From positions 1-45,414 of the forward strand of contig CAYGWR010000002.1 in assembly GCA_964353645.1 (NCBI GenBank): a stretch of 45,414 nt of DNA, read 5' to 3'. This document shows positions 217 to 18,589 of the stretch, one piece after another. A model generated the notes under the pieces. It saw only the letters and a program-made list of their open reading frames with translations, did no database searches and was not told where the DNA came from. Position 1 is the first letter of the stretch. Every line of letters begins with the position of its first letter. The translations under genes and the position numbers were made by a program. The DNA comes from an uncultured Dehalococcoidia bacterium (GTDB lineage Bacteria; Chloroflexota; Dehalococcoidia; SZUA-161).

Positions 217-219
217 AGT

Positions 220-330
220 CTCTTTTCAACCCCTGTACCCCCCAAGATTGGGGGAATTTTAAGACTGGGGGACACCCCCAGTCCCCCATCATCCGCCTGA
301 GGCAGACTGCGCCTCTTTTTCAGCAGTCTC
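220..330 (+). repeat. Family-A intergenic repeat, copy 1 (divergent right half)
   Basis: CTCTTTTCAACCCC...CCCCCAAGATTGGGGG...CTGGGGGACACCCCC aligns with the copies at 23633, 25127, 37561 and 43929. The third hairpin here is GAGGC-AGACTGC-GCCTC plus TTTTT instead of GAGGGGC-TTT-GCCCCTC. Confidence 0.8.
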
Positions 331-337
331 TATACAT

Positions 338-850: not shown

Positions 851-925
851 TTACCTTCTCCCATTGAGAAATAGTAGTAACGCACTCGTCATAAAAATTG
901 AAGTTGTCACCTTCTATATATCCCC

Positions 926-1375
926 TCAATGTGCCCGGTAGGCTCGCTTCCATGGCTGGTTCTTGAAAGCCAGGTAGTCTCTTATAGCTGCTCTTAATGT
1001 ATCTGATGCTAATAGAGCACAATGCTGGCTCTCCTCTGGCAAACCTCCTAAAGCATTCAGAACATCGTGTTGGGTAATCTTGAATGCATCAGATACGTTC
1101 TTACCTTTGGCCAGTTCAGTCACCATGCTTCCAGCGGCTATCGTTGTCGCACAGCCATCCGTAAAGAAAGTGGCGTTTAGAATCTTATCGTTTCTAACCC
1201 TTATGCATATCTCCATGGTATCGCTGCAAGAACCGACTACGCTGGCGAAACCATCGGCATCAGGGATCTGCCCCAGGTTTCTGGGGTTCTGAGCATGGTC
1301 AATAACAATCTCCGTGTATACTGTCCTCAAATCCCTGTTTGTTTTCTCGGGTTCCTTTTCCGCTTCTGAGTACAT
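926..1375 (-). CDS. IscU/NifU-N-type Fe-S cluster scaffold protein
   Basis: 149-aa ORF with the three scaffold Cys contexts (GSCSD, TDGCATT, SQHCALLASD) and the DHAQNPRN N-terminal motif. Confidence 0.85.
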   Translation of the reverse strand: MYSEAEKEPEKTNRDLRTVYTEIVIDHAQNPRNLGQIPDADGFASVVGSCSDTMEICIRVRNDKILNATFFTDGCATTIAAGSMVTELAKGKNVSDAFKITQHDVLNALGGLPEESQHCALLASDTLRAAIRDYLAFKNQPWKRAYRAH

Positions 1376-1476
1376 TCCAATTCCTCTGTTAATTCGGATT
1401 TATTGGATACAGGTTTGGGCAGCGCTTCAGCGCTCCGCTGTTCGCGAGCGATTTGTCAGACCACCATTAATGTTGT

Positions 1477-2070
1477 TTAAGGTTTCCAGACCTCCCACAC
1501 CCTTCCAACCAGCGCGGGACCTGGTTTGAGCGTGACCTGCCCAGGCTGCCAACCCGAAGGCGTGACTTCCCCTGTTGCCCGCACATGCTGGAATGCCTTT
1601 ACCTGCCTGACTAATTCATCGGGATTCCGCCCCACTTCAGGCGTTAGCACTTCCATCGCCCGGATGACGAAGTCAGGGTCAATAATAAAGCGACCGCGGA
1701 TGTCCACTCCAGCCGATTCGTCGTACACACCGTAGACCTTCCCGATTTTGCCCCCGGCATCTGAGAGCATGGGGAAGGGAACGCCGCCATTTACCATCTT
1801 GGACAATTCCTGCTCCTGCCAAATCTTGTGCACAAAACGGCTGTCTGTGCTCATTGCCAGAACTTCAACACCCAACGTCTTAAACTCCTCGTAGCGGGCA
1901 GCGACCGCTGCCAGTTCTGTGGGTCAGACAAAGGTAAAATCTCCCGGATAGAAGCAAAGGACAACCCATTTCCCCTTGTAGTCCGAGAGCTTGATAGGGA
2001 CGAAGCCCTTGCCGGCAACAAAAGCATTCGCCTCAAAATCCAGTGCTCCTTGTCCTACACGTGCGAACAT
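1477..2070 (-). CDS. prxU: Selenocysteine-containing peroxiredoxin (PrxU-like; in-frame UGA at 1924-1926 read as Sec)
   Basis: Track ORFs 1924..2175 and 1477..1875 share one frame and are joined through a single TGA. That TGA sits exactly at the peroxidatic Cys position: GDFTFV-[TGA]-PTELAAV. The best start is ATG 2068-2070 (AGGAGGTTAGAGAA-ATG, giving [14 protein letters not shown]). An alternative in-frame ATG at 2175 also has an AAGGAGG SD. The resolving Cys is absent (GEVTPSGW instead of EVCP..W). Confidence 0.85.
1897..1912 (-). promoter_or_regulatory. Candidate bacterial SECIS hairpin for the peroxiredoxin UGA
   Basis: mRNA 5'-GGCAGC-GGUC-GCUGCC-3' forms a perfect 6-bp stem starting 11 nt after the UGA. 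Its GGUC apical loop resembles the E. coli fdhF SECIS apex. Confidence 0.6.
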
Positions 2071-2298
2071 TTCTCTAACCTCCTGAGATGATGAAGCTCT
2101 TGCCGCTTGGGGGGCCGATTCGGGAACAATCGGACCGCGTGCCGGTTTGACACAACCTTCTTTGAGCTCTGCCATACTAACCTCCTTCTGTGATTCTTTT
2201 ACTTCCTTTTTCGCGCCGCCCTGGGATGATTCCTGACTAGGTCGTGCACAGAGGCATTATGAATTCTCGCATAGTAACGCTCAATGTTGCCCCTCTGT

Positions 2299-3303
2299 CT
2301 ATTCAGATTTGTTGGCCGCGGCTTGAAGAAAAGCATCTGCGAAGCTACGCATGGCCTCTGAGTCATAGCGTTCGATGTTACCCTCATCGCAGAGCTTCGC
2401 CATCTCAGGGTCTATGGGAATCTGTCCCAGAAGAGGAGCATTGGCTGACTTTGCCATCTCCTGACCCTTGCTCTTGCCGAAGAGCTCTATCCGCTTCCCG
2501 CTATCGGGCAGCAGGAAGTAGCTCATATTCTCAACCACCCCTATTATGGGTATATTCATCTTCTGCGCCATTTGCACTGCCTTTCTCACCACCATCGCCG
2601 CCAGCTCCTGAGGGCTGAATACAATGACTACCCCTGAGAGAGGCAGAGATTGCATAACGGTCAGTGGGGCATCTGCCGTTCCCGGTGGCAAATCGACCAG
2701 CAAATAATCGAGCTTCCCCCAGAGCACATCCTCCCAGAATTGAGTTATGGTTTTCCCTATGAGGGGCCCGCGCCAGATAACAGCGTCATCCTCATTGTCG
2801 AGAAGCAGGTTGATAGACATTATCCCTATGCCAAGATGGGACAGAGGAGGCAAAATTCCGGTTTCGCTGCCAGCAGGGCGTCCGCTGATGCCAAACATAC
2901 GGGGTATGCTGGGTCCTGTAATGTCGGCATCGAGAATGCCAACCTCGTAACCACCTCGCGCCAGTGAAATTCCGATAAGGCCGGTAACCAGCGACTTGCC
3001 CACCCCGCCCTTGCCGCTCATAATGGCAACTACGTGCTTGACCTCATTGAGTTCTTTCGGTTTGGAGTCAACGAAATCAATCTTCACCTGTTTTATTTTG
3101 GGAAGCCCTTTGACGACATCTCTTGCCTTGGCTTTTATCCACTCCTGTGAGGCTGGACTCAACGCCGCTGAGGCGATCGCGATGTCAACATTGCCATCCG
3201 AAAACGCTACATTCTTAACGAGGTTAAGCTTGTTCAGGCTGCGCATCGAGCCCGGCACTAACACAGCCTCAAGCCTTTCTTTTATCTGTTCTTCGGTAGT
3301 CAT
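2299..3303 (-). CDS. Mrp/NBP35/ApbC-family P-loop ATPase with N-terminal DUF59-like domain; lacks the canonical CxxC cluster-bridging motif
   Basis: Deviant Walker A is IMSGKGGVGKS. The family motif ENMSYF is followed by LLPDSGKR where ApbC/Mrp proteins have C-x-x-C. The protein is 334 aa. Confidence 0.85.
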   Translation of the reverse strand: MTTEEQIKERLEAVLVPGSMRSLNKLNLVKNVAFSDGNVDIAIASAALSPASQEWIKAKARDVVKGLPKIKQVKIDFVDSKPKELNEVKHVVAIMSGKGGVGKSLVTGLIGISLARGGYEVGILDADITGPSIPRMFGISGRPAGSETGILPPLSHLGIGIMSINLLLDNEDDAVIWRGPLIGKTITQFWEDVLWGKLDYLLVDLPPGTADAPLTVMQSLPLSGVVIVFSPQELAAMVVRKAVQMAQKMNIPIIGVVENMSYFLLPDSGKRIELFGKSKGQEMAKSANAPLLGQIPIDPEMAKLCDEGNIERYDSEAMRSFADAFLQAAANKSE

Positions 3304-3360
3304 AGTTTAGCCTCCTTAGTAATTGTGTCAGGTTAGTCTCTAACTGACACTTTTATTCGC

Positions 3361-3759
3361 TTAGTGCAGTCTATCCATCAGGTTGGGGAGCTTGCCCTTT
3401 AAATAGAGCTCCACAGCTTTATAGATATTATCCACATCAGTTACTATGGTTTCGATATTGTAGCTTTTCAAGCTCTCGTAAGCACCCCATCCCATGCCTC
3501 CTGCGAGCAACACCTGACAGTCGGATATAGTCTCAGCCATGTTGGCATGCTTGCTCTGCGAGTCGGCATCATAGCCGTGGCGCTCGCCTGGCGCCGTTTT
3601 GTGGGGCTCGTGAGCGGCGAAGGTATGATGTCCAGCCTTGGGTCTCTGTTCCTTGTTCGCGATTACCCCGTCCTCCACCGTGAGCACCACGTAATACGGG
3701 GCTCGTCCGAAGTGCTGGCTAATTTTGTAGCCATCTTCTGATACAGCAGCTATTCTCAT
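3361..3759 (-). CDS. NifX/NifB-C-terminal-like (dinitrogenase FeMo-cofactor-binding fold) domain protein
   Basis: MRIAAVSEDG..ISQHFGRAPYYVV...VLLAGGMGWGAYESLKSYNIE, the typical pattern of this domain family. Confidence 0.8.
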   Translation of the reverse strand: MRIAAVSEDGYKISQHFGRAPYYVVLTVEDGVIANKEQRPKAGHHTFAAHEPHKTAPGERHGYDADSQSKHANMAETISDCQVLLAGGMGWGAYESLKSYNIETIVTDVDNIYKAVELYLKGKLPNLMDRLH

Positions 3760-3776
3760 TTCAGCCCCCTATATAT

Positions 3777-4067
3777 TTAATCCAGCTTCATTTCGTATTT
3801 TGGTTCTCCATCCCCCAGATGGATTACAATCTTAACATTCTTGCCTTCAGAAAGGTACTTTTCAGATTCATCACGTAGCTTCTGCAGTTCAGGGGATGTA
3901 AGTAAGGTTATCAAAGCCTCATAAGTCTGTTCAGGCTCCTTGTTCCCTCCTTCGCATTTGAGTATTTCCCAGAGACAATTACGAGCTTCTTCCTCGGCAC
4001 AGCATTTGATACATCTCCCGGGCACTTCCTTGGTAGTGTATCCAAGCTTAAGCTCGATATCACTCAT
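3777..4067 (-). CDS. Small Cys-rich hypothetical protein (96 aa from MSDIELK)
   Basis: GGAGGGGTAAGAGAC-ATG SD. The start overlaps the upstream stop by 8 nt. Five Cys lie in CIKCCAEEEARNCLWEILKC. I recognise no family. Confidence 0.5.
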   Translation of the reverse strand: MSDIELKLGYTTKEVPGRCIKCCAEEEARNCLWEILKCEGGNKEPEQTYEALITLLTSPELQKLRDESEKYLSEGKNVKIVIHLGDGEPKYEMKLD

Positions 4068-4311
4068 GTCTCTTACCCCTCCGGCAGCCATCTTCTGAGG
4101 AGCACGGCGGTTTGTCGCAGCGCTCCTCCCTGCCGCAGCAAGTCGAGCCCTGTGCTCTGCCCTCGCCTCGTACTAAGTGAGATGCTGAAAAAAGCTTCTC
4201 AAGAGCACCACTGCCACAATAGGGACAAGCGGATGGTGTGTTGTCAACACCGCGTAGTAATACCTCTGTGATTTTGCCGCAATCACGACACTTGAATTCG
4301 TATATAGGCAT
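4060..4311 (-). CDS. FmdB-family zinc-ribbon protein (CxxC...CxxC)
   Basis: MPIYEFKCRDCGKITEVL...CPYCGSGALEKLFS is the signature of the family. GGAGAGGAG SD precedes ATG 4309-4311. Confidence 0.75.
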   Translation of the reverse strand: MPIYEFKCRDCGKITEVLLRGVDNTPSACPYCGSGALEKLFSASHLVRGEGRAQGSTCCGREERCDKPPCSSEDGCRRGKRHE

Positions 4312-4313
4312 AC

Positions 4314-5177
4314 CTACTCCTCTCCTAATGCTTGACGAATCTTTTGCCACATTATCTCAATCTGATGGGCAACACCGTTTTGGCGGTATTCAACTACGGG
4401 AGTACCCTGCACCAGGGCTTCGGTCACCACATTATCGAAAGGCAGTTTGGCTGCTACCTCTATCTTTTGCTCGCGACAGAACATCTCGATTCTTTGTGTA
4501 TTTTCTTCGTTCAGGTCATACTTGTTGATGCAGACCAGCGCGGGAACTCTGAAATGACGGCACACTCCGATTACCCGCTCCAGGTCGTGCATCCCCGATA
4601 GAGTGGGCTCGGTCACCAGGAGAGCCAGATTGGCTCCAGAAAGGGAAGAAATTACCGGACAGCCAATGCCCGGGGGGCCGTCGGTGATGATGTAATCGAG
4701 GCCTTCCTTCTGCACAATTGATCTGGCGTTCTGCCTGACTACGTTCACCAGCTTGCCTGAATTCTCCTTAGCAATCCCCAGCCTGGCGTGAACCAGCGGT
4801 CCATACTTAGTGTCTGAGATAAACCAGTGCCCTGCCATATTCTCCTTCATGGTTATGGCATTCTCAGGGCAGACACGGGCACAAAAGCCACAACCTTCGC
4901 AAGCGGTGGGGTCAATCTTCAGGTCATTTATCGCTTCAAATCGGCAGACTTCTTGGCACAGGCCACAACGTGTACAGAGTTTTTCATCGATGATGGCTGT
5001 CTGACCGCTTCTAAAGTCACGGGTTTCCTTCGCCTCTGGTTTCAGAAGCAGGTGCAGGTCAGCGGCATCCACATCGCAGTCACACAGCACCTTGTTTTTA
5101 GCCAGTGCTGCAAACGAGGCTACTATGGTAGTCTTGCCTGTCCCGCCCTTTCCGCTGAGAACTACAATTTCTTTCAT
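4314..5177 (-). CDS. MinD/ParA-superfamily P-loop ATPase with inserted 2x[4Fe-4S] ferredoxin domain (COG1149-type)
   Basis: VLSGKGGTGKT P-loop, plus CTRCGLCQEVC and CEGCGFCARVCP ferredoxin motifs. A 4-nt overlap (ATGA) joins it to the upstream paralog. Confidence 0.85.
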   Translation of the reverse strand: MKEIVVLSGKGGTGKTTIVASFAALAKNKVLCDCDVDAADLHLLLKPEAKETRDFRSGQTAIIDEKLCTRCGLCQEVCRFEAINDLKIDPTACEGCGFCARVCPENAITMKENMAGHWFISDTKYGPLVHARLGIAKENSGKLVNVVRQNARSIVQKEGLDYIITDGPPGIGCPVISSLSGANLALLVTEPTLSGMHDLERVIGVCRHFRVPALVCINKYDLNEENTQRIEMFCREQKIEVAAKLPFDNVVTEALVQGTPVVEYRQNGVAHQIEIMWQKIRQALGEE

Positions 5178-6031
5178 CTTCTTACCTGTCTTTGTTCAGC
5201 TACAATCCCCTCGATAGTGTGAAAGAGCTCAAGGAACCTACCGCGCCACTCAGGCATGCCTTGGACCAGCGTAATACCGTTCGAATACAAACGGGCTATC
5301 TCTCTGTCCAGCGGTATTTTGAGGAGCAGGGGTATATTTTCCTTAACACAGTACTCCTCTACCTTGCCGTATGTGCCACCCGCGCGGTTGAGCACTATAC
5401 CGCAGGGTATGCCCAATACCTTCACTGTATCAACAGCAAGAGACAGGTCGTGCAGCCCAAAAGGAGTGGGCTCGGTCACCAGCAAACAGAAGTCGCTGCC
5501 CCTTACCGCCTCCACAACCGGACACGATGTGCCGGGCGAAGCATCAATAATGGCTGTCTTCGTCTTGTTAATAAGCCGTTTCACCTCTCGAATGACTGGC
5601 GTAGCCATAGCCTCGCCTATGGTGAGCCTACCCTGGACAAAATCTATTTCACCTGCGTAGCCTGTTTCGACTACTCCTACCTCTCTCCCTTCCTCCGATA
5701 TCGCCTTTTGAGGGCAGAGATAGGCGCATGCCCCGCAGCCGTGGCATAGCTCGGGGAAGATAAGCACTATGTCCTTGACCACAGCGATGGACTTATAGGC
5801 GCAAACCCTGGCGCACTCGCCACAGTAGTTGCATTTCGTCTTGTCCACCTTGGGCACCGGGATGCATACAGGCTTGCTCTGAACAATCTTAGGCTGAAGA
5901 AGCACATGGACATTGGGCTCCTCGACATCGCAGTCCAGAATCTGCACCTGCTTTCCCAGTGAGAGGGCAAGGCTGGTAGCTACCAGGGTCTTCCCCGTGC
6001 CTCCCTTACCACTGGCGATGGATATAATCAT
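5174..6031 (-). CDS. MinD/ParA-superfamily P-loop ATPase with inserted 2x[4Fe-4S] ferredoxin domain (paralog)
   Basis: IASGKGGTGKT P-loop, plus CNYCGECARVC and CHGCGACAYLCP motifs. Confidence 0.85.
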   Translation of the reverse strand: MIISIASGKGGTGKTLVATSLALSLGKQVQILDCDVEEPNVHVLLQPKIVQSKPVCIPVPKVDKTKCNYCGECARVCAYKSIAVVKDIVLIFPELCHGCGACAYLCPQKAISEEGREVGVVETGYAGEIDFVQGRLTIGEAMATPVIREVKRLINKTKTAIIDASPGTSCPVVEAVRGSDFCLLVTEPTPFGLHDLSLAVDTVKVLGIPCGIVLNRAGGTYGKVEEYCVKENIPLLLKIPLDREIARLYSNGITLVQGMPEWRGRFLELFHTIEGIVAEQRQVRR

Positions 6032-6048
6032 ATCTTATGTGCCCTCAA

Positions 6049-6651
6049 TTAGACTTGAACAATCAGCACTCTCTGGACTTCGCTTTGGAATTCTTTAATA
6101 GCAAGTCCTTTATTCACAAAATAATCCTTCGCTTCATCTAAGCGATGCTCAAAATAATCGTGTTTTCGTCCTTCATGCGTATGGCACATATTGATAATCT
6201 CAAACCCTTTTTCGCTGAAATCACTTAAGGCAACCTTTCCATTAGGCCGCAACAAACGGACAATCTCATCTAAAACCGCAAATGGCTTTTCAAGGTGATG
6301 AAACACGTTAATAGAAAATATCATATCAAGGCTTTGGTCCGGAAAGTTCAAATGTTGCGCATTCTCTATTCTAAAAACCACCTGCTTTCCCAGCCCAAAA
6401 TATTGCATATTGAGCTTCGCAATTTCCTGCTCCTCTTTGGATATGTCTATACTGATAAAACTGAAACCGCGCTTTGCCAAAGCAAGCGCAAAATGCCCCT
6501 TACCGGTCCCAATCTCTAAGATTTTCCCTGAAAAAGGTAAAGATTTATCGAGGATAAAATCCCTTTCTTTTTCCAAATCGTAACCAAAGCTTCGGTAAAA
6601 ATTAACTCTTGCTAAATACCTTTCATGATTCTCAAAAACTACCTTCTCCAA
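6049..6651 (-). CDS. Class I SAM-dependent methyltransferase (compositional outlier)
   Basis: SAM motif I is ILEIGTGKGHFAL, and motif post-I is DIS. Hand counts give about 37-40% GC (6061-6180) versus about 62% in the adjacent 5941-6000. Confidence 0.85.
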   Translation of the reverse strand: MEKVVFENHERYLARVNFYRSFGYDLEKERDFILDKSLPFSGKILEIGTGKGHFALALAKRGFSFISIDISKEEQEIAKLNMQYFGLGKQVVFRIENAQHLNFPDQSLDMIFSINVFHHLEKPFAVLDEIVRLLRPNGKVALSDFSEKGFEIINMCHTHEGRKHDYFEHRLDEAKDYFVNKGLAIKEFQSEVQRVLIVQV

Positions 6652-6747
6652 GTCGCCTCCGTGCCTGCACCTAGCCGGGTTCCACCCCTCATACCGTGTC
6701 AGTCGCCACGGCCCATGCCGTCTTTACTTCTGGCTATCAACTTACAA

Positions 6748-6966
6748 TCATCCCCTTGCCATTTTGGTGCCGCATTTTGGGCAATTTATGTCAGAGCAGG
6801 GAGTTCCAACGCTGTGCGGCACCGTCGCCCCGCATTTAGGACAGACGCAGTTGCCGCCGCTCCCTGCTCCCGGGCGATTTCTGCCACGGCCTATACCCCG
6901 GCCTATACCTCGACCTGTTCCCCTTCCACCGCCACCGGGCGGTCCGGTTCTATCTCCACCAGGCAT
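6748..6966 (-). CDS. Gly/Arg-rich small protein with DUF5320-like N-terminus and C-terminal zinc ribbon
   Basis: MPGGDRTGPPGGGGRGTGRGIGRGIGRG...CVCPKCG...CPKCG. AAGGAGGTGCATT-ATG SD. A paralog lies at 8358..8588. Confidence 0.7.
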   Translation of the reverse strand: MPGGDRTGPPGGGGRGTGRGIGRGIGRGRNRPGAGSGGNCVCPKCGATVPHSVGTPCSDINCPKCGTKMARG

Positions 6967-6977
6967 AATGCACCTCC

Positions 6978-7358
6978 TTATTTTGTTCCGCCCATGCCGT
7001 GATGGGCTTTAACACTGGGTTGAGAAGCGGCCTTCAACCTTCCCGCTTTGAAATCCTTGGCAGCCTGCTCAACTTTTCCGGAGACGCCGGTTATTACCTG
7101 AATCCCGGCGGCCTCAAACACCTGATACGCGTTCGGGCCGCAGTTGCCGGTCAGCACTGCCTTGACGCCTTTACCCACTATTCCCTGAGCCGCTGATATA
7201 CCCGCGCCGCCTCCCGCCATCATGTTGGCGTTCTCGATAAACTCGAACTCCATGGTAGCCGGGTCGCCTACTGCGAAGTATTGACACCTGCCAAAGCGAG
7301 GGTCGACAGAGGCGCTAAAATCCTTTCCTTCCGAACTGATACAAATCTTCACGTTCAT
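6978..7358 (-). CDS. NifX/NifB-C-terminal-like domain protein
   Basis: DPRFGRCQYFAV...AGGGAGISAAQ...VLTGNCGPNAYQVFEAAGIQV. TAAGGAGGA-ATG SD. Confidence 0.85.
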   Translation of the reverse strand: MNVKICISSEGKDFSASVDPRFGRCQYFAVGDPATMEFEFIENANMMAGGGAGISAAQGIVGKGVKAVLTGNCGPNAYQVFEAAGIQVITGVSGKVEQAAKDFKAGRLKAASQPSVKAHHGMGGTK

Positions 7359-7364
7359 TCCTCC

Positions 7365-7742
7365 TTAATGACAACTTCCGCCGTCGCCATGCTCCTTACA
7401 AACATCCAACCCACCCAAGGTATTGTTCATAAAATCATCTAAAGCGGCCTGCACTTTGCCTGAATAACCAAATATCTGCACCCCTGCGCTGGCAAATTTC
7501 TGCTGGGCGCCCATTCCCATTCCACCGGCAATGACATGCGTTACCTTGTGTTTGAGAAGCTCATCAACCGCAATACACCCGCCGCCTCCATGAACTGCGG
7601 TATTAGGAACAATCCTGGTTTCGGTGATCTTTTTCTTGTCCTTGTCAATGTCCACAAGGAAGAAAAACGCGCACTGACCAAAATGTGCGCAAACATTACC
7701 CCGGATACCTTTTTCATCTTCTAGTACTACTCCAACTCTCAT
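7365..7742 (-). CDS. NifX/NifB-C-terminal-like domain protein
   Basis: HFGQCAFFFLVD...HGGGGCIAVDELL...VIAGGMGMGAQQKFASAGVQI. I prefer ATG 7742 (GAGG upstream, gives MRVGVVLED) over the track start at 7775, which has no SD. Confidence 0.8.
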   Translation of the reverse strand: MRVGVVLEDEKGIRGNVCAHFGQCAFFFLVDIDKDKKKITETRIVPNTAVHGGGGCIAVDELLKHKVTHVIAGGMGMGAQQKFASAGVQIFGYSGKVQAALDDFMNNTLGGLDVCKEHGDGGSCH

Positions 7743-7781
7743 CGGGACTAACCTCACTTTCTTTTTATAAATCATGCGTTG

Positions 7782-8205
7782 TTATTTCTGGTCTGTTTCA
7801 TGCGTATCTTTCATGGCATGAATAAGCGCTTCGATATCCTCAAGCTGCTGTTTCAGAAAATCGGCCTGATCCTTGAGTATAGTTGCTTCATCCTCTTTAG
7901 CTCTTCCCCAGATGGGAAAGCTTGTGGCGGGCCAACAGTTTCTAATTACCCGAAGGGCAGAGTTCCACGGGTTTACCCGTGGGTGAATGAGCAATCGCCC
8001 GAAGGGCGTCAAGCGAAGATTGAACTGTAAAGTGCCACGGGCTTGCCCGTGGGTATCTACAGCCGCGTCCTCCGCCTCTACCGTAAAAAACACGCCTCCC
8101 AAACGACCGATTTCCTGCGCCATTGAAAGCTACAGCGCAATGGCCCATCCCTCCTCCTGTCATGGGGCCCATGCCCCTCGGTCCTGTTCCATCAAATCCT
8201 GGCAT
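7782..8205 (-). pseudogene. DUF5320-like gene split into two frames by a hairpin-rich insertion
   Basis: The N-terminal half runs from 8205 down to about 8056 (MPGFDGTGPRGMGPMTGGGMGHC...GRGGGRGCR). The C-terminal half runs from 7940 down to 7782 (WPATSFPIWGRAKEDEATILKDQADFLKQQLEDIEALIHAMKD). The halves are in different frames. Together they match the architecture of the intact paralog at 10070..10423. Confidence 0.65.
7941..8055. mobile_element. MITE-like 111-115 nt insertion inside the DUF5320-like gene
   Basis: It is flanked by direct TCTA (7941-7944 and 8056-8059). The ends are imperfect inverted repeats: TACCCGAAGGGCA at the left, and TACCC-ACGGGCA as the reverse complement of the right end. 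The interior holds four hairpins: CCC-GAA-GGG, CCACGGG-TTTA-CCCGTGG, CGCCC-GAA-GGGCG and CCACGGG-CTTG-CCCGTGG. Removing 115 nt restores one reading frame. Confidence 0.5.
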
Positions 8206-8324
8206 TTTAGGCCTCCTTTAAATAATTTGTATCAGTCGATTGTTAGCCCCAGCAGCGCTGCGGCAAATCAATAACATCAGCCTGTGCATCTCCTAATATT
8301 TGTTTTATCATGCTTTTTATTATC

Positions 8325-8350
8325 CCTCCCTTGCCGCTGGCGATGGATAT
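8325..8350 (-). pseudogene. Relic of the 5' end of a MinD-like ATPase gene (P-loop region only)
   Basis: CCTCCCTTGCCGCTGGCGATGGATAT matches 6000-6025 (CCTCCCTTACCACTGGCGATGGATAT) at 24/26 positions. It translates as IISIASGKGG and then runs into AT-rich non-coding sequence. Confidence 0.55.
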
Positions 8351-8357
8351 GATCTTT

Positions 8358-8588
8358 CTATTCTCTCGCCATTTTACCGCCGCATTGAGGGCAGTTTACG
8401 TTATAACATGGGACACCCCTTTGATGAGGCGCCTTGGTTCCGCAACTGGGACAAACACAGTTGCCGCCGGGCCCTGCTCCCGGGCGATTGCCGCCCATCC
8501 TCCCAGCACCTTTGACTCCTTTGGCAATACCTCTTCCCGTTCCCGAACCGCTGCCCCAAGGGGGCCCCGTTCCATCTCCTCTAGGCAT
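8358..8588 (-). CDS. Gly/Arg-rich small protein with DUF5320-like N-terminus and C-terminal zinc ribbon (paralog of 6748..6966)
   Basis: MPRGDGTGPPWGSGSGTGRG...CVCPSCG...CPQCGGKM. The GAGGAGG SD lies 8 nt before ATG 8586-8588, so I prefer that start over the GTG at 8594. Confidence 0.7.
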   Translation of the reverse strand: MPRGDGTGPPWGSGSGTGRGIAKGVKGAGRMGGNRPGAGPGGNCVCPSCGTKAPHQRGVPCYNVNCPQCGGKMARE

Positions 8589-8623
8589 TGCCACAACCTC
8601 CTCATTGAAATTCGCCCTCTTTC

Positions 8624-9454
8624 CTATTCCAGGGTTATCTGTGTGCCTGCATTATTTAAGAAAAAGATATCTTTGAACTCCTTAGCCAGAGCAGCGGAGG
8701 CATTAAAACCGGTGCAATGGGACACCCCAAGCCTTTGTAGCCCAAGCCCCTTTAGCTCGTTAGCAGTCTTTTCAATGCGCTCCGGCGAAGCCACCATGAG
8801 ATGCGTGCCCCCGATTATAGTGTGTATGTATTCCCCTCCTGTGAGCTTCTGGACTTGTCTGACGGTGTTGATAATGCCGCGGTGAGCGCATCCGGTAATC
8901 AGAACCAAACCCTCAATTGTCTTTACCACCAGAGCTAGGTCATCCGCTAGCGGGTCGGGTATCATCTTATTGCCCTCCTTCACGCAAAGCCTGTCATCAA
9001 TCGTCTCGTACCCTGTGGTCAGCTCAATCTCGCCGGTGGTTTTTATGTCATCGCTTATCTTGAAGGGCTTTTTCGTGAGATTGAATGATGCTCCAAGACT
9101 TTCAAGGTCTTCCTTCATATAAGGTATCCCCGCATAGCGGCTCATTTCACCATAGACAACGTATTTAGATATCCATATATCCGGATGTGCTATAACCTGC
9201 ACCTGCTTTCTCACCCGCCTCAGCACGTCGCGCAACCCCCCTGTATGGTCTCCGTGGGCATGGCTGAGCACAATGGCATCGATTGTGGAGAAGTCAATTC
9301 CCATGAGGTCAGCGTTGTACACCGCCGAGGTGCTCAAACCTGTATCGAGCAGCACTTTGGCGGTCTCCGTTTCCACCAGGATGCTCAGGCCCCACTCGCC
9401 GAGGAAACCAAGCTGGGCAGTGTTCTCGCTGAGGGTGGTGATACGCACGGCCAC
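8624..9454 (-). CDS. Metallo-beta-lactamase-fold protein
   Basis: HAHGDH motif (VLSHAHGDHTGG). 276 aa. GTG start with GGAGGTGACAA upstream. Confidence 0.85.
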   Translation of the reverse strand: MAVRITTLSENTAQLGFLGEWGLSILVETETAKVLLDTGLSTSAVYNADLMGIDFSTIDAIVLSHAHGDHTGGLRDVLRRVRKQVQVIAHPDIWISKYVVYGEMSRYAGIPYMKEDLESLGASFNLTKKPFKISDDIKTTGEIELTTGYETIDDRLCVKEGNKMIPDPLADDLALVVKTIEGLVLITGCAHRGIINTVRQVQKLTGGEYIHTIIGGTHLMVASPERIEKTANELKGLGLQRLGVSHCTGFNASAALAKEFKDIFFLNNAGTQITLE

Positions 9455-9475
9455 TTGTCACCTCCAATAGTGTTT

Positions 9476-9997
9476 CTAGGGTTCGGCTCTTTTCTCAAGC
9501 TGGTTGAGACGGAACATAACCTCACTCAATTGCTGCCTGAGCATCTGAGATTGGGATTTTAGCTGGCCCAGCTCTTGCTCAACGTTAGTAGTCCCTGACT
9601 CTTTAGCGGCCCCTGCGCCTTGGCTCATTCCACGGCCCATTCCAGAGTGAGAGCCGACGCTGGGCTTTGATGTTGTCTTAAATTCACCTGATTTGTATTG
9701 TTCAATGGCCTTTCGTATGTTGCCAGAGACACCTGTTACAACCTGGATGCCTGCCGCCTCAAGAGTTCGATAGGCATTGGGGCCACAGTCGCCAGTGAGC
9801 ACTATTTGCACTCCTTTACGGGCTACCGTCTGCGCGCTGGCTATTCCCGCTCCGCCGGAGGCCATTAAATTGGCATTCTCAATAGCTTCGAATTACATGT
9901 TATCCGGGTCAATCAGGACAAAGTACCGACATCTGCCAAAACGAGGGTCCACCTCAGCATCCAGGCTGGGAGCGGTTGCTGAAATTGCGATTTTCAA
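9476..9997 (-). pseudogene. NifX-like domain fused to a Gly/Arg linker and a DUF5320-like coiled-coil tail, interrupted by an in-frame TAA (9893-9895)
   Basis: TTG start at 9997 with GAGGAGGTATACC upstream. The gene reads LKIAISAT..VDPRFGRCRYFVLIDPDNM-[TAA]-FEAIENANLMASGGAGI. The stop aligns with a Glu in the paralog 6978..7358 (DPATMEFEFIENANMMAGGGAGI). The tail is GMGRGM...ELGQLKSQSQMLRQQLSEVMFRLNQLEK. Confidence 0.7.
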
Positions 9998-10069
9998 GGT
10001 ATACCTCCTCGGCTGGGGCAGGCTTGGGGAACATGAAAGCCTGCCATAGCATTACTGCATGTTTCGTTA

Positions 10070-10423
10070 CTACTTCTGTTCTTTCTCCAGTTCTTTTATC
10101 CTGGCTTCGATTTCATCGAGTTGGGCCTTTATGGCGTTGGTCTCCTCTCTGAGGAAATCCACCTCCTGCTTCGGGCTCATCTGTGGGGGGTAGGGAGTGG
10201 TGCCAAGGTATCCTGCCCCTGATTTGAAAGGCAATGCCCCAAGCCCCGCATATGAAGGCATTGCCCACCAACGCCTGGGTAGCAAGGTATAGAAGCGGCA
10301 GAAGGGATAGAGATTGCCACGGCCCATTTCTGTTCCTCTACCCATACCGAGACCTCTGCCCATCCCCATACCACGACCCAGGCCCATGCTGCCCCATCTG
10401 AACCAACCTCTTGCGAACGGCAT
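10070..10423 (-). CDS. DUF5320-like Gly/Arg/Met-rich protein with C-terminal coiled coil (intact)
   Basis: GLGRGMGMGRGLGMGRG repeats, then KQEVDFLREETNAIKAQLDEIEARIKELEKEQK. AAGGAGGTAAGTGAG-ATG SD. Confidence 0.7.
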   Translation of the reverse strand: MPFARGWFRWGSMGLGRGMGMGRGLGMGRGTEMGRGNLYPFCRFYTLLPRRWWAMPSYAGLGALPFKSGAGYLGTTPYPPQMSPKQEVDFLREETNAIKAQLDEIEARIKELEKEQK

Positions 10424-10464
10424 CTCACTTACCTCCTTTCCACTTGTTTAATAGATTCCTCTTG

Positions 10465-11229
10465 TTACTTCTTCATGGTAAGCAGGCGCACTCCTTTCAT
10501 CTGGCGGAAGGTAGCGCCCTGGCTGACGTATCGTAAAACTGTTTCTATATCAACAACTTTGGTACCTGAAATAACATCTACTCCGTAATCAAAGAGTATC
10601 GGTGAGAGCGGGGTGCTTGGTCCTAAAACAATGACAAAAGCCTTTGGTTCACAGAGCGTGAGCAGGTCTTCGATAGTGTGATTGACAAAGGCACTGCCTG
10701 TGATAGCCACAACATCAGCTTTAGGAATGATGTTGTGTGCCTCGCCTTCCCCCAGGTCGTTCTCTCTGGGGTGCTTCTCAATTACCCAGAGTTCTTTTGT
10801 TGTTTCGCGAAGCCTTTTAACAAATGGGAAATGTCCCACGATTGCTACCCTTTTATCACGGCCCTTTTCCTGTATAAGTTCAGCAGCATTGAGGTCAATG
10901 CACCGACTTTCCTCTATTTCAATGAGGGAGTTCATAGTTGCGATACCTATTGCTGCTTCCAGCTCGCTCTCCGAACGGGCCATCCTGGCCAGCCCGAGAG
11001 CAGATTTTTCCGTCAAGTGCCCCGCATCTTTCACTGGAGCAGGGAGATCAGTACTGTGATGGTCGGGCGCGTGCGGCGTTGATGCAAGCCCACAGTTACG
11101 GGTCAGCACGGCTGTCCAGAAGGGTCCCAATCGTATGTCTTTTAACGTGGCTTGATAATCAAGCACGGTGAGTAAATCGTTTATGATTTTCAGACTCAAG
11201 ATTACCAGTCCTTCCTGCCCCGGCGGCAT
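10465..11229 (-). CDS. DUF364/DUF4213 (putative heavy-metal chelation, Rossmann-like) protein
   Basis: GPFWTAV...CGLAST N-terminal part, and VAIVGHFPF...ADVVAITGSAFVNHT...LGPSTPL C-terminal part. The start is uncertain because it overlaps the upstream gene by 28 nt. Confidence 0.75.
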   Translation of the reverse strand: MPPGQEGLVILSLKIINDLLTVLDYQATLKDIRLGPFWTAVLTRNCGLASTPHAPDHHSTDLPAPVKDAGHLTEKSALGLARMARSESELEAAIGIATMNSLIEIEESRCIDLNAAELIQEKGRDKRVAIVGHFPFVKRLRETTKELWVIEKHPRENDLGEGEAHNIIPKADVVAITGSAFVNHTIEDLLTLCEPKAFVIVLGPSTPLSPILFDYGVDVISGTKVVDIETVLRYVSQGATFRQMKGVRLLTMKK

Positions 11230-11672
11230 CTACCCCGCCCCATCATGCCAAAGCCGAATCCGGCCACTGGTTGTATTTCAGGACTCTGACACTCTGGGCA
11301 TGAAGAGGGAGCACCCGCTACCATCTCCTCAAATGGCACATCCCACTCATGGCCTTCGGTGCCACACCTGAAGCGGCGCATTGCCATCTCGAAGTTACCT
11401 CCCTCGATGCGAATAGCCTTGCCATTAAGCAGGGCATCGGCCACCTTCTTTCGTGCAGACTCCAACACCCTGTGAAAGGTGGGACGCGAGATGTTCATCT
11501 TTTGGGCGCATTCCTCCTGCTCCAAACCCTCGATGTCTTTCAGGCGGATTGCCTCCACTTCCTCGACTGAAAGATTGACTTCCTCCAGAGAATAAAGGGG
11601 GATTCCTGCCGGCTTGAAATAGGTTATCTCAGGAATAAAGCCAACACGGCGACACTTGATTGGCCTGGGCAT
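11202..11672 (-). CDS. DUF134 (UPF0251) predicted DNA-binding protein with C-terminal zinc-ribbon and Gly/Arg tail; first gene of the operon
   Basis: MPRPIKCRRVGFIPEITYFKPAGIP...EAIRLKDIEGLEQEECAQKMNISRPTFHRVLESARKKVADALLNGKAIRIEGG is the family signature. The extension has C..H...CPEC and GFGFGMMGRGRCRRGR. Confidence 0.85.
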   Translation of the reverse strand: MPRPIKCRRVGFIPEITYFKPAGIPLYSLEEVNLSVEEVEAIRLKDIEGLEQEECAQKMNISRPTFHRVLESARKKVADALLNGKAIRIEGGNFEMAMRRFRCGTEGHEWDVPFEEMVAGAPSSCPECQSPEIQPVAGFGFGMMGRGRCRRGRKDW

Positions 11673-11697
11673 AAGTCAAAGCCCCCTTCGATTCAGT

Positions 11698-11727
11698 ATT
11701 AATTATGAACATATGTCCATAATTAAT
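11698..11727. promoter_or_regulatory. 30-bp near-perfect palindrome, candidate operator of the long operon
   Basis: ATTAATTATGAACATATGTCCATAATTAAT is self-complementary except for one symmetric position. It abuts or overlaps the -10 of the minus-strand promoter. Confidence 0.55.
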
Positions 11728-11753
11728 ATAGCATTGATATGTTTACATGTCAA
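11725..11753 (-). promoter_or_regulatory. Sigma70-like promoter of the DUF134-led operon
   Basis: On the minus strand, TTGACA (11748-11753), N17, TATATT (11725-11730), about 55 nt upstream of the ATG at 11672. Confidence 0.55.
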
Positions 11754-11762
11754 GGTTAGAAT
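11734..11762 (+). promoter_or_regulatory. Sigma70-like promoter of the divergent methyltransferase gene
   Basis: TTGATA (11734-11739), N17, TAGAAT (11757-11762). It interdigitates face-to-face with the minus-strand promoter. Confidence 0.5.
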
Positions 11763-11824
11763 ACTCGAGGTGCTACCTTATTGAACTCTGAGAGATTCGG
11801 CTCTCCCAGTGATGAAAGGGTTTG

Positions 11825-12499
11825 ATGACTGATGTAGAGAAGTTCGAGGCCAAAAGAGACCGTGTAAGAGCGCGTCTCTGCAGATTCACCAGAAAGGCTT
11901 TTCAATTGCTTCCCAGGTTGGATAGACCTTGTATTCTTGATGTGGGATGTGGCTCAGGCGTCGCTACTATAGAACTGGCAAAGCTTTGTGATGGTCAGAT
12001 AGCAGCCTTGGACATAGATGAACATGAGCTTAATAGGCTTGATGCGAAGATTGAAAAGGCGGGGCTTTCGCACCGCCTGACGACTGTGAAATGCTCAATG
12101 TTAGAAATGGATTTCCCAAATGGCAGCTTTGATATTATCTGGGCCGAGGGTTCGATATATGTGGTTGGCTTTGAAAATGGGCTCCGGGTATGGTCTCGAT
12201 TTCTCAAACCCAAGGGATTCCTTGTTGTGCACGATGAAACAGGAAACATAGATGAGAAACTAAAACAGATACCATCTTGTGGATATGATTTAATCGACTA
12301 TTTTATATTAGACCAGGATGTCTGGTGGAACGAGTACTGCGTTCCTCTGCAGAGGCTGATTAATGAAATGCGACCCCGATGCGCCGGTGACTCCAAGGCG
12401 CTTGCCCTAATCGACCAGAACCAGCATGAGATCGATATGTTTAAGGTGACTCCGGAACAGTACCACTCAACGTTCTTCATTATCAGAAAAAGACACTAA
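11825..12499 (+). CDS. Class I SAM-dependent methyltransferase
   Basis: ILDVGCGSGVATIELA motif I and ALDID post-I. ATG 11825 lies one codon after the TTG used by the ORF track. Confidence 0.85.
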   Translation: MTDVEKFEAKRDRVRARLCRFTRKAFQLLPRLDRPCILDVGCGSGVATIELAKLCDGQIAALDIDEHELNRLDAKIEKAGLSHRLTTVKCSMLEMDFPNGSFDIIWAEGSIYVVGFENGLRVWSRFLKPKGFLVVHDETGNIDEKLKQIPSCGYDLIDYFILDQDVWWNEYCVPLQRLINEMRPRCAGDSKALALIDQNQHEIDMFKVTPEQYHSTFFIIRKRH

Positions 12500-12690
12500 A
12501 GGGATCTGGGCCAGGGGAAACGGGCCACACCATACCCCAGAAAATACCATTACCCCATAAATTATCAGCGTTAATGGGACTCCTTGAAAACATAATTTGA
12601 TATACACTTGGGACCATCAGTTATTTCTGAAGGCCTTATTGTCCCACTTCCCCTGACCACGTGGACATCTGCATTGTCATCTAACCACGC

Positions 12691-14697
12691 TCACGCTAAC
12701 CTGGCTATTTGAAAGACCACGATGGCGAGAGAGAGCGAGAGTATTATTTGCAGGCCAATGGAAAAGGCCACCCAGCGCCAGCCTCCGGTCTCCTGACGAA
12801 TCGCTGACATTGTAGCGACACAGGGAACGAAAAGAACCTGCGCCACGAGGAAGGCAATCGCCGCACCTGGAGTCAGCATCCCTCTCAGAGCCTGAGTCAG
12901 CCCGACGCTTTCTCTGCCCAGCAATACGCCAAGGGTTGCTATTGTGTTCTCCTTGGCTACAAAGCTGGTCAATAGAGCCACCATTAATTGCCAGTTCAGC
13001 CCCATAAGCTTGCCAACAGGCTCAAGCCCTTTGCCAATGTGCCCAAGAACACTGCCTTCGATATTGCTTGAGGGGAAATAGGATAGGAGCCAGATGATGA
13101 TAGACACGACCAGTATGATTGTTCCAGCGCGTTTGATGAATGCTATGGTCCGCTGCCATGAGACAAGTCCGATAGTTCGCGGATTAGGCTCGTGGTAGAG
13201 CGGCAGTTCCATCATCAGAACAGCCCTCTCGCCTTGAAAGATGAAACGGTTCATCAGTAACCCTGAAATCACCAACACCACCAAGCTAAAGGCGATGATT
13301 CCCGCCGTTACCAGTATGGCTTGGCCCCCGAAGATCGCTGCTGCGATCACCCCGATTACTGCCATTCTGCCTGCACAGGGGATAAGAGGCGCCAAGAGCA
13401 CGGTCAAAAGACGAGCCCGCTTCGACTCGATAATGCGCGTCCCCATCACTGCGGGGACGTTGCACCCGAAACCTAAAAGCAGCGGCAAAGATGACTTGCC
13501 GTGTAATCCCAACATGTGCATGAACCTGTCTGTGACGAAAGCCACCCGTGCCGTGTACCCAACATCTTCCAAAAAACCCCAGGATACGAAGAAGAGAAAC
13601 AGTATTGGAAGAAATGTGAGAACGGTTCCCACCCCGCCCAGTAGGCCATTGCCAAGGAAGCTTTGCAGCCAGCCTGGCATGAAATGCATGTGGTCAAATA
13701 CCAGTGTTTGCGCTCTTTCAATTAAGCTGACCTGCAGGAAATGCTGCACGGGAACGCCTATTCCATAAACGACGAGGAAGACAAGGATCATGACTGCTGC
13801 CAGAACTACCAAGCCCCAGATCGGATGAGTTGCAGCATGGTCGATTTTCTCGGTAACAGAGACTCGGCCTATGGCGGGCCTGTCTTGAGCTGACGATAGC
13901 ACATTCTTGACCCAATCGAAGCGGAGCCCGGCTAAGGTTATTGCAGCAGACTCCTTGTTGCTGAGAAAGGAGTCCAGTTCCGCCTGTCGGTCCTGTGATA
14001 GGCGGTCGTGTAGCAACTTGTTGATCTGGCTATCACCCTCTAATACCTTCATAGCCGCCCAGTGCCTCGGGTAGGGACTCGTGTCCGCATCTGTCAAGAG
14101 ACCTTCAATATGAGCTATGTCACCTGAGATCTTGCTGCCATACTCCACATGTCCCACCGCCGGGGAATCCACCGCTTGAGTGCATTTCTGTGCAATGACT
14201 TCCACCAGCTCCTTCAAACCCCGGTTCTTGCTGGCCACCATGGGGACAACTGGCATATGCAGCGCTGACTCCAGAGCCTTAACGTCGATATTCATGCCTT
14301 CCTGTCGGGCTACATCCACCATGTTCAGGGCGACTATCAAACGCGGTGTGAGTTCCATGAGCTCAGTCACCAGATACAGGTGGCGGTCCAGGCTGGCGGC
14401 ATTGAGCAGGGCGACAACCACATCGGGCTTTTCCGTCACCAGGTAGTCCCGTGTAATCTGCTCTTCCAGTGAGTTGGCGGTGAGGCTGTATGTGCCTGGC
14501 AGGTCGACCAGTTGGAGAGTTAAACCATTGTAGCGGGCTGTTCCGGTCTTCTGTTCCACTGTCTTCCCCGGCCAGTTACCCACGTGCTGGGAGAGGCCTG
14601 TTAGAAGATTGAAAACTGTGCTCTTGCCTACATTAGGTGCTCCGGCCAGCGCCACGACGACGGTTTTCTTGTCAGGTTTCTCAGGTTGCTCTAGCAT
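12691..14697 (-). CDS. feoB: Ferrous iron transporter FeoB
   Basis: 668 aa. The N-terminal G-domain has GAPNVGKST, DLPGTYSL and NMVD motifs, followed by a polytopic membrane domain. Confidence 0.95.
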   Translation of the reverse strand: MLEQPEKPDKKTVVVALAGAPNVGKSTVFNLLTGLSQHVGNWPGKTVEQKTGTARYNGLTLQLVDLPGTYSLTANSLEEQITRDYLVTEKPDVVVALLNAASLDRHLYLVTELMELTPRLIVALNMVDVARQEGMNIDVKALESALHMPVVPMVASKNRGLKELVEVIAQKCTQAVDSPAVGHVEYGSKISGDIAHIEGLLTDADTSPYPRHWAAMKVLEGDSQINKLLHDRLSQDRQAELDSFLSNKESAAITLAGLRFDWVKNVLSSAQDRPAIGRVSVTEKIDHAATHPIWGLVVLAAVMILVFLVVYGIGVPVQHFLQVSLIERAQTLVFDHMHFMPGWLQSFLGNGLLGGVGTVLTFLPILFLFFVSWGFLEDVGYTARVAFVTDRFMHMLGLHGKSSLPLLLGFGCNVPAVMGTRIIESKRARLLTVLLAPLIPCAGRMAVIGVIAAAIFGGQAILVTAGIIAFSLVVLVISGLLMNRFIFQGERAVLMMELPLYHEPNPRTIGLVSWQRTIAFIKRAGTIILVVSIIIWLLSYFPSSNIEGSVLGHIGKGLEPVGKLMGLNWQLMVALLTSFVAKENTIATLGVLLGRESVGLTQALRGMLTPGAAIAFLVAQVLFVPCVATMSAIRQETGGWRWVAFSIGLQIILSLSLAIVVFQIARLA

Positions 14698-17185: not shown

Positions 17186-17187
17186 AC

Positions 17188-18582: not shown

Positions 18583-18589
18583 AGAGATA

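Follow-up and report, generated by a model that had tools for sequence, protein, structure and literature searches.

The orange protein (ORP) complex, reportedly first described in 2011 and said to have kept its physiological role open ever since, is a close described relative of the operon that we discuss here. The operon lies in a 45,414 nt stretch of DNA (the window) from an uncultured Dehalococcoidia bacterium (SZUA-161; assembly GCA_964353645.1, contig CAYGWR010000002.1, positions 1–45,414), and comprises 17 closely packed minus-strand genes at 2299–11672 behind one sigma-70 promoter with a palindrome; the operon genes and promoter elements given below by their coordinates, together with the peroxiredoxin and IscU genes, are on the minus strand. 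In the ORP complex of Desulfovibrio vulgaris, Orp3, Orp4 and Orp8 were co-purified, and Orp5 and MrpORP were reported as further members (PMC6345978, PMC8359166). Orp3 and Orp4 are MinD-like ATPases with two ferredoxin motifs each, Orp8 is homologous to the orange protein, and Orp5 is a small protein whose homologue binds a [2Fe-2S] cluster. The orange protein carries a non-covalently bound [S2MoS2CuS2MoS2] cluster, and MrpORP passes Fe-S clusters to Orp3 and Orp4 in vitro; orp regulation has been mapped to sigma-54, OrpR and IHF, with the genes arranged in two divergent operons (PMC6345978, PMC8359166). The role of the complex is still described as ‘unclear’. A second described system of relevance is IssA, a NifX-fold protein of Pyrococcus furiosus that functions in iron–sulfur (thioferrate) storage, and whose cationic tail has been proposed to wrap the anionic thioferrate.

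We conclude that the core of the Dehalococcoidia operon is an ORP cluster of the D. vulgaris type, a known and partly characterised kind, and that the locus as a whole is a variant of that system, with a different regulator, an Mrp-class ATPase lacking the CxxC motif, and extra modules. Our preferred reading, to which we assign a probability of about 55%, is that of an expanded ORP cluster whose genes form a single sigma-70 operon controlled by a DUF134 autorepressor, and whose products build anionic metal-sulfide clusters, keep them bound and pass them on. The cargo is most probably Fe-S, given the linkage to IscU and Mrp, the adjacent iron uptake genes and the presence of IssA-like tails. 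A first-pass annotation had proposed an uncharacterised metallocluster-handling system, assembled from a recurrent combination of families that had no experimentally defined function. Metallocluster handling remains the best reading, and conservation of the neighbourhood proved very strong (80 loci); ‘uncharacterised’, however, does not apply to a core that corresponds to the ORP complex, and to deny the combination any experimental definition was too strong, since that complex has been published (PMC6345978, PMC8359166). For the accessory genes, we found no characterisation in the literature searched. The useful new leads are the regulator–operator pair and the link to IssA.

The paired ATPases and their conserved neighbourhood

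The genes for the Orp3-like MinD-class ATPase (5174–6031) and its Orp4-like paralogue (4314–5177) overlap by 4 nt, and both products match the CbiA/ParA and Fer4 families. Each protein contains two CxxCxxCxxxC motifs, whose eight ferredoxin cysteines are invariant in each paralogue, and this 2x[4Fe-4S] domain is inserted directly after switch I; the signature lysine, switch I and switch II are retained in both. A further cysteine is found at switch II, 7 residues past the switch II aspartate, and is likewise invariant (Cys170, 81/81 Orp3-like proteins; Cys173, 75/75 aligned Orp4-like proteins). Asp125 and the cluster ligand Cys132 of A. vinelandii NifH are spaced in the same way, so the dimer interface may hold a site under nucleotide control. 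The presence of an invariant cysteine at this NifH ligand position in both ATPases appears to be new, and together with the missing CxxC of Mrp (see below) it offers specific residues for mutation.

The AlphaFold2 model of the Orp3-like protein (predicted local distance difference test score, pLDDT, 83) has a predicted C-terminal helix at residues 261–284. Its closest folds are archaeal MinD, ParA-like proteins, ApbC, Cfd1 and ATPase-type HypB, with NifH and BchL lower. A sequence search of solved structures returned no ferredoxin-inserted MinD, and Pfam scans of the operon proteins gave no match to the MinC or MinE families.

Other ORP components have candidate counterparts close to this pair. 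NifX-like 3 (6978–7358; Nitro_FeMo-Co) is the candidate equivalent of the orange protein (Orp8), its best match among solved structures being D. gigas ORP (2WFB; E = 3.5e-19, residues 4–114). An FmdB-type CxxC...CxxC zinc ribbon with a Cys-rich tail (4060–4311; Zn_ribbon_8; start placed after the gene call in L001, a metagenome contig described below) is encoded directly after the second ATPase, the position of orp5 in D. vulgaris, and the order MinD-ferredoxin, MinD-ferredoxin, FmdB recurs across loci.

A genome scan anchored on the Orp ATPase yielded 80 loci from more than 12 bacterial and archaeal phyla, among them Chloroflexota, Desulfobacterota, Ignavibacteria, Omnitrophota, Planctomycetota, Acidobacteriota, Bacillota, Bathyarchaeia, Methanocellaceae and ANME; ORP-type clusters span anaerobic Bacteria and Archaea. 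The anchor ATPase is 50–79% identical to the window protein in these loci, and 50–60% identical across phyla. We searched the six-frame open reading frames (ORFs) of the 80 loci with the window proteins as single-sequence queries, and the counts for small proteins are therefore lower bounds. Paired ferredoxin-ATPases were present in 78/80 loci and NifX-like proteins in 75/80, followed by Mrp (43/80), FmdB and the Gly/Arg-rich zinc-ribbon (GRZn) proteins (37/80 each), IscU (32/80), DUF134 (24/80), DUF5320 (21/80), the MBL-fold protein (19/80), DUF364 (12/80, always co-directional and no farther than 3 kb away) and the methyltransferase (11/80). The controls, FeoB and a hexapeptide protein, were found in 4/80 and 1/80 loci respectively. 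Nearly all family matches lie less than 3 kb from the ATPase pair and on its strand. The IscU matches all share the strand of the ATPase pair and lie no more than 5 kb from it, which indicates that IscU belongs to the system and that the unit in the window extends to 926.

The proposed DUF134 regulator and its operator

The first gene of the operon encodes a DUF134 helix-turn-helix (HTH) protein (11202–11672; Pfam DUF134, 90 bits, with additional sigma-70 region-4 and HTH matches) that has a C-terminal Cys/His module and a Gly/Arg tail. Ahead of it stands the promoter that the first-pass annotation had read in the sequence as the single good one, with its 30-bp palindrome, and it is indeed the sole 11/12 sigma-70 match within 200–12000 (11725–11753; −35 TTGACA at 11753–11748, −10 TATATT at 11730–11725, a 17-nt spacer and an extended −10 TG). 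Matches to the sigma-54 consensus were at chance level, with none at the operon head. The palindrome, ATTAATTATGGACATATGTTCATAATTAAT (30 bp, 11698–11727, one mismatched pair), contains a conserved 20-bp core operator, TTATGAACATATGTCCATAA (11703–11722), which begins 2 nt past the −10 box and, from that position, spans the expected transcription start. Coverage of the start by the operator suggests repression.

The core pattern, with up to 3 mismatches allowed, has one match in the 45-kb window against 0.03 expected. In 14 genome loci from several phyla it is conserved a short way ahead of DUF134 genes, with a single copy per locus at the operon head. With up to 2 mismatches, the operator was found in 22/80 loci, as compared with about 4 in shuffled sequence, and in 18 of these 22 it stands at the head of the cluster. 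A metagenome scan with the exact 20-mer TTATGRRCATATGYYCATAA gave 120 sites, 82 of which abut a DUF134 ORF and 9 another cluster gene; among the remaining 29, seven head operons that begin with ARMT1/DUF89 and two head DUF5320 genes. At least 18 metagenomic operators thus lie beside cluster genes other than DUF134. A good sigma-70 promoter was recognised at 46 of 85 operator sites, and in 33 of these 46 the −10 box ends 1–3 nt ahead of the operator, the same arrangement as the 2-nt gap in the window.

The seven ARMT1/DUF89 loci (L113, L118, L143, L148, L160, L174 and L200) encode a damage-control phosphatase-like protein; where the contigs are long enough, GRZn, NifX and ATPase genes come next and a PdxB-like dehydrogenase gene is divergent. 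In L086, L135 and L184 the operator adjoins an ORF of 405–448 aa, assigned in L184 to pyridine nucleotide-disulfide oxidoreductases by Pfam, and these ORFs could be further members of the DUF134 regulon.

Several features of the DUF134 proteins point to a regulator that senses the cargo. DUF134 and a NifX-like domain are joined in five ORFs (L037:662–1459, L092:8920–9618, L172:2422–3279, L176:1809–2711 and L202:1184–1879); the exact 20-bp operator stands beside four of them, and L037 has a version with 2 mismatches. DUF134 is joined to the GRZn module in one protein, and about half of 113 DUF134 proteins, that of the window included, have a C-terminal Cys module. The NifX fusions in particular point to the cargo itself as the inducing signal. 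OrpR of D. vulgaris likewise uses an Fe-S cluster for sensing. We found no functional study of DUF134 (UPF0251, COG1342) or of DUF5320 in the literature searched. We propose that DUF134 is an autorepressor of the operon; the DUF134/TTATGRRCATATGYYCATAA pair appears to be new, and would provide a handle for finding the inducing signal.

Carriers, cationic tails and the likely cargo

The small Gly/Arg-rich proteins of the operon are of two types. DUF5320a (10070–10423) starts with 85 residues that are cationic overall and in which Gly, Arg and aromatics abound, and its C-terminus is a coiled coil; its paralogue DUF5320b (7782–8205) is present as two reading frames, split by a 115-nt insertion. 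GRZn1 (8358–8588) begins with a disordered Gly/Arg-rich stretch, starting MPRGDGTGP, and ends in a Cys6His zinc-ribbon-like knuckle; GRZn2 (6748–6966) is a second protein of this type. Five or six such proteins had been counted, and four stand-alone genes were found, one of them the split copy. The two GRZn proteins (72–78 aa) have no confident Pfam family, but the family is large (1363 cluster representatives in a library of 1.84 billion proteins) and recognisable by its N-terminus, MPRGDGTGP, the following Gly/Arg-rich stretch and the knuckle C-x-C-P-x-C-G-x5-H-x5-C-x4-C-P-x-C-G. DUF5320 proteins share the N-terminal motif and end in a coiled coil. In the AlphaFold2 model of GRZn1, residues 1–42 are of low confidence and residues 43–76 have pLDDT 86–90; in a fold search with the GRZn model nothing reached significance (best E = 0.39), and Cys4 zinc knuckles and rubredoxins were nominally the nearest.

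The composition of these proteins recalls IssA. Residues 1–85 of DUF5320a contain 21% Gly, 11 Arg + Lys, 14 Phe/Trp/Tyr, 9 Pro and 1 Cys, with an isoelectric point (pI) of 11.3, while the 70-residue IssA tail contains 15 Gly, 7 cationic residues, 14 aromatics, 11 Pro and 1 Cys, with pI 10.7. DUF5320a thus resembles, in amino acid counts that agree almost one for one, a detached IssA tail. The GRZn module is found elsewhere fused behind NifX domains, as well as behind DUF134 and behind a PF04060 Fe-S domain. The match of the Gly/Arg-rich proteins to the cationic IssA tail in composition, with one type fused to NifX in other organisms, appears to be new. Between them, the detached and fused tails connect ORP clusters with the idea of thioferrate storage by IssA.

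Four proteins of the NifX fold (all Nitro_FeMo-Co) are encoded, where four or five had been noted, and one of them is interrupted. NifX-like 1 (9476–9997, TTG start at 9997) is of the orange-protein type with a coiled-coil tail. NifX-like 2 (7365–7775) is of a Cys/His type, with CAHFGQC near the start and C..H..CH near the end; its best NCBIfam match is to positions 273–365 of MrpORP, and it resembles, by motif and alignment, the cluster-binding C-terminal domain of MrpORP with the CxHFGxC motif described there (PMC6345978). NifX-like 4 (3361–3759) has no cysteine and a His-rich insertion.

Two of these genes are damaged. NifX-like 1 contains an in-frame TAA at 9895–9893, where L001, which is 98.6% identical, has GAA (Glu); the stop codon is either a nonsense mutation peculiar to this strain or an error of assembly or sequencing. 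L001 is 98.6–99.7% identical to the window; over 342–13308, the lower figure applies to the part upstream of the insertion site and the higher to the part downstream. The operon halves on either side may have had different recent histories. The insertion in DUF5320b (about 7941–8055) is absent from L001, in which the gene is intact. It contains the hairpins CCACGGGnAAnCCCGTGG and GCCCTTCGGG in two copies each, has a TAGA duplication at its flanks, and folds much more stably than shuffled versions of itself (z = −3.4). Another assembly, L002, matches the window exactly and breaks within the insertion, which suggests a small repeated mobile element; no copy of the hairpin was found in loci L001–L084. 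In relatives of the same class, DUF5320, NifX and GRZn genes precede the ATPases as a single set, to which the window adds a second set (DUF5320b, NifX-like 2, NifX-like 3, GRZn2 and a methyltransferase). Because one orange-protein-type NifX and one DUF5320 are still intact, the damage looks like decay of redundant copies.

The Mrp/NBP35-class ATPase (2299–3303) matches ParA/NUBPL (PF10609, 307 bits) and has an N-terminal DUF59 domain (FeS_assembly_P). It has the deviant Walker A motif GKGGVGKS and an Mrp-type P-loop fold, and the P-loop domain is best matched in NCBIfam by MrpORP (321 bits against a cutoff of 450, model positions 1–243 only). The CxxC cluster ligands are absent (ENMSYFLLPDSG), and only a single cysteine is present in the whole protein; in the alignment with A. 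fulgidus 2PH1 (250 bits), ENMSYFLLPDSG lies opposite ENMSYFVCPNCG. Loss of the CxxC and of the DUF59 cysteine is common to the Chloroflexota lineage, with 10 Chloroflexota-type loci lacking CxxC, whereas the cluster-linked Mrp proteins of other phyla retain CPxC. Among loci L005–L017, L016 has both an Mrp with CxxC and one without. A CxxC-less Mrp appears to be new.

We envisage that DUF134 would bind the 20-bp palindrome 2 nt past the −10 box and block initiation; the conservation of the operator and its association with DUF134 are observed, while binding and repression are what we infer from them. The signal would be the state of the cluster, sensed either through the Cys module of the window protein or through a NifX-like domain of the kind that some organisms join to DUF134. 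IscU and the Mrp-class ATPase might supply Fe-S, as MrpORP of D. vulgaris does in vitro, a step that is doubtful here because the window Mrp lacks CxxC. The Orp3-like and Orp4-like proteins may form a nucleotide-switched heterodimer, with two [4Fe-4S] clusters each beside switch I, in which ATP would gate the transfer of electrons or clusters. NifX-like carriers would bind the cluster non-covalently, in the manner of the orange protein, or through Cys and His in the case of NifX-like 2. The composition of DUF5320 and GRZn, and the fusion proteins, suggest that these would wrap anionic inorganic species as proposed for the IssA tail.

Several observations weigh against this scheme. Two paralogues are inactivated in this strain, and hence not every part is needed. 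The CxxC that the window Mrp lacks has been called essential for Fe-S biogenesis (PMC6345978), so the supply step may not apply, and no cysteine desulfurase is encoded in the operon. The parallel with IssA is one of composition, tail homology not being its basis, and the equivalence of the FmdB-type protein with Orp5 is one of gene position. The orange protein was isolated with Mo and Cu, and DUF364 is linked to molybdate uptake in a methanogen, so that the cargo could be Mo/W-S. Finally, a role in cell division has been offered as a hypothesis by the authors of the D. vulgaris work.

A more far-reaching proposal, which we think less likely than not, is that DUF134 binds DNA and a NifX-like domain binds the ligand in a widespread sensor of metal-sulfide clusters in anaerobes. 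It would control an ATP-driven Orp3/Orp4 machine, equipped with the NifH-like switch II cysteine, that builds and mobilises IssA-type polymeric Fe-S (thioferrate-like) stores, held by NifX-fold carriers and the detached DUF5320/GRZn tails, and ORP clusters would then provide general Fe-S storage and buffering for mesophilic anaerobic Bacteria and Archaea. If this were true, it would account for the way in which anaerobes with many Fe-S enzymes can buffer iron and sulfide while doing without ferritin chemistry.

The orange protein’s [S2MoS2CuS2MoS2] cluster, and its standing as the best match of NifX-like 3, raise the question of whether the cargo is instead a thiometalate. In sulfidic cells, Mo/W-S or Mo-Cu-S species would then be sequestered or delivered by the NifX-like carriers and cationic tails, for instance to supply W/Mo enzymes or to detoxify thiomolybdate. 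M. maripaludis has a DUF364 gene inside its modABC operon, where it is cofit with nifH, and a tungsten-type aldehyde ferredoxin oxidoreductase (AOR) is encoded 10 kb from the operon, and both speak for this explanation. We nevertheless think it improbable: no mod, tup or wtp transporter and no molybdopterin genes were seen beside the cluster in the window, its neighbours there are iron uptake genes (FeoB, DtxR-FeoA), and DUF364 occurs in 12/80 loci as against 32/80 for IscU and 43/80 for Mrp. The Mo-Cu cluster could itself be a product of isolation, a reservation of our own.

The invariant switch II cysteine, placed as NifH Cys132, suits a different proposal, in which the cluster serves solely to mature a single complex metallocofactor. 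The two ATPases would work on a NifEN-like scaffold as NifH does, to build or insert a cluster of high nuclearity, and NifX-like proteins would take this to a specific client enzyme; the presence of NifX-fold carriers together with a SIMIBI-class ATPase pair, and of NifH and BchL among the fold matches, fits this. The cluster, however, contains neither a radical-SAM (NifB-like) gene nor a NifEN-like scaffold, no client gene is conserved beside it across the 80 loci in searches that covered the window families, and the anaerobic hosts are so diverse that a common client is not obvious, all of which makes such a maturase unlikely.

A MinD-like function, with ATPases that pattern the division site or chromosome and metal clusters that act as redox sensors, has on its side the closest folds (MinD, ParA and FleN), the morphological defects of D. 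vulgaris on OrpR inactivation and the location of MrpORP at a cell pole, but we give it little credence, since the same fold covers the metallochaperones HypB, ApbC and Cfd1, the cluster is conserved in Bacteria and Archaea despite their different division machineries, its linkage is to IscU, Mrp and NifX-like carriers and not to MinC/MinE or ParB, and its regulator is fused to a cofactor-binding domain.

Remaining genes, surroundings and comparison with described systems

The layout of the operon agrees with the first-pass annotation in outline and departs from it in detail. About 20 minus-strand ORFs had been counted; 17 genes lie in the interval, and three more on the same strand (peroxiredoxin, IscU and hexapeptide-repeat genes) lie downstream. 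The operon structure stands, although the spacing, given as mostly 2–100 nt, ranges from a 32-nt overlap to a 152-nt gap. Terminator-like sites were at chance level, and no internal terminator stood out from that background. Pfam bore out every family call that had been made, including DUF134, DUF364, MBL, FmdB, the Mrp-like protein and the two ferredoxin-inserted ATPases. The nearest relatives are Dehalococcoidia: a protein bearing that name is 86% identical, and genome locus L005 79% identical.

Further members of the operon include a DUF4213 + DUF364 protein (10465–11229; 57 + 144 bits, enolase-N-like and Rossmann-like folds), an MBL-fold metallo-hydrolase assigned by Pfam (8624–9454; no specific NCBIfam name), and a 104-aa protein (3777–4091) with no confident family and weak matches to AF_2379 and PF27306. 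A class I S-adenosylmethionine (SAM)-dependent methyltransferase (6049–6651; Pfam/NCBIfam) had been missing from the earlier list. No NCBIfam model names DUF364, DUF5320, GRZn or the 104-aa protein. In the literature searched we found no characterisation of the DUF134, DUF5320, Gly/Arg-rich zinc-ribbon or MBL genes, and the only DUF364 enzymology concerned an unrelated Streptomyces pathway.

The IscU scaffold and selenocysteine peroxiredoxin that had been placed at the distal end are both there. IscU/NifU-type Fe-S scaffold gene (926–1375; NifU_N) is a conserved distal member, outside 2299–11762. The peroxiredoxin gene (1477–2175), which lies between Mrp and IscU in this lineage, has an in-frame TGA (1926–1924) at the position of the catalytic cysteine (FTFV-U-PTE). 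A GC-rich hairpin, GGCAGC-GGUC-GCUGCC (1895–1911), follows 13 nt past the TGA; the region folds no better than shuffled sequence, and the hairpin could be a bacterial selenocysteine insertion sequence (SECIS) element. An Rfam scan of the whole window found no family above threshold, so neither this hairpin nor the 115-nt insertion has a curated RNA match.

On the other side of the operon promoter, a second SAM methyltransferase gene (11822–12499, plus strand) is divergent to the operon and is also found in L001; a 10/12 promoter-like site (11734–11762, plus strand) lies back to back over the operon promoter region. The neighbours named in the first-pass annotation, feoAB/dtxR next to the operon and AOR and Fe-S enzymes near it, were all recovered. 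At 12691–15602, FeoB adjoins a single ORF that joins DtxR-type repressor domains to two FeoA domains. Two HGD-D (2-hydroxyacyl-CoA dehydratase/benzoyl-CoA reductase-like) subunits, a BcrAD-type activase and an AMP-binding ligase are encoded at 15956–19372, and the tungsten-type AOR at 21692–23560; all of these enzymes, which lie close to the operon, are Fe-S-rich or tungsten-type.

The operon shares with nitrogen fixation systems the NifX/NafY/NifB C-terminal carrier fold (PF02579) and a SIMIBI-class ATPase with a cysteine 7 residues past the switch II aspartate. It differs in its ferredoxin-inserted ATPases, whose fold is nearer to archaeal MinD and HypB than to NifH, and in its lack of nifHDK, nifEN and a radical-SAM nifB: as had been stated at the outset, Pfam and NCBIfam searches of the 20 operon proteins gave no match to NifB radical-SAM, NifEN or NifHDK. 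Nitrogen fixation was rejected for this reason, and nothing spoke for a role in anti-phage defence. With the Mrp/NBP35/ApbC carriers, the window Mrp has in common GKGGVGKS and a DUF59-type N-terminal domain as in ApbC, and it differs in having LPDS in place of CPxC.

The likeness to IssA consists of a NifX-fold (IPR003731) domain combined with a disordered cationic Gly/Arg/aromatic/Pro region that has a single cysteine, and the GRZn modules behind NifX domains in other organisms reproduce an IssA-like architecture. In the window, by contrast, tails and NifX domain are on separate polypeptides, only NifX-like 1 having a modest tail of its own; the tails end in a coiled coil (DUF5320) or a Cys6His knuckle (GRZn); and the system includes ATPases and a regulator.

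Compared with the ORP system of D. vulgaris, the window has one sigma-70 operon, with DUF134 (the putative autorepressor) as its first gene and a palindromic operator. Its Mrp starts with a DUF59 domain and lacks both the CxxC and a fused NifX-like domain; there are four NifX-like paralogues, and DUF364, MBL, the methyltransferase, two DUF5320, two GRZn, the AF_2379-like protein, IscU and the selenocysteine peroxiredoxin are extras. What the two systems share is an adjacent pair of MinD-type ATPases with two [4Fe-4S] ferredoxin motifs each, a single-domain NifX-fold protein of the orange-protein type (NifX-like 3 in the window), a small Cys-rich protein directly after the second ATPase (in the window a candidate Orp5 by gene position), and an Mrp-class ATPase whose P-loop domain is nearest to the MrpORP model. 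Both are restricted to anaerobes, and each has its own locally encoded transcription factor, whose sensor may be a cluster.

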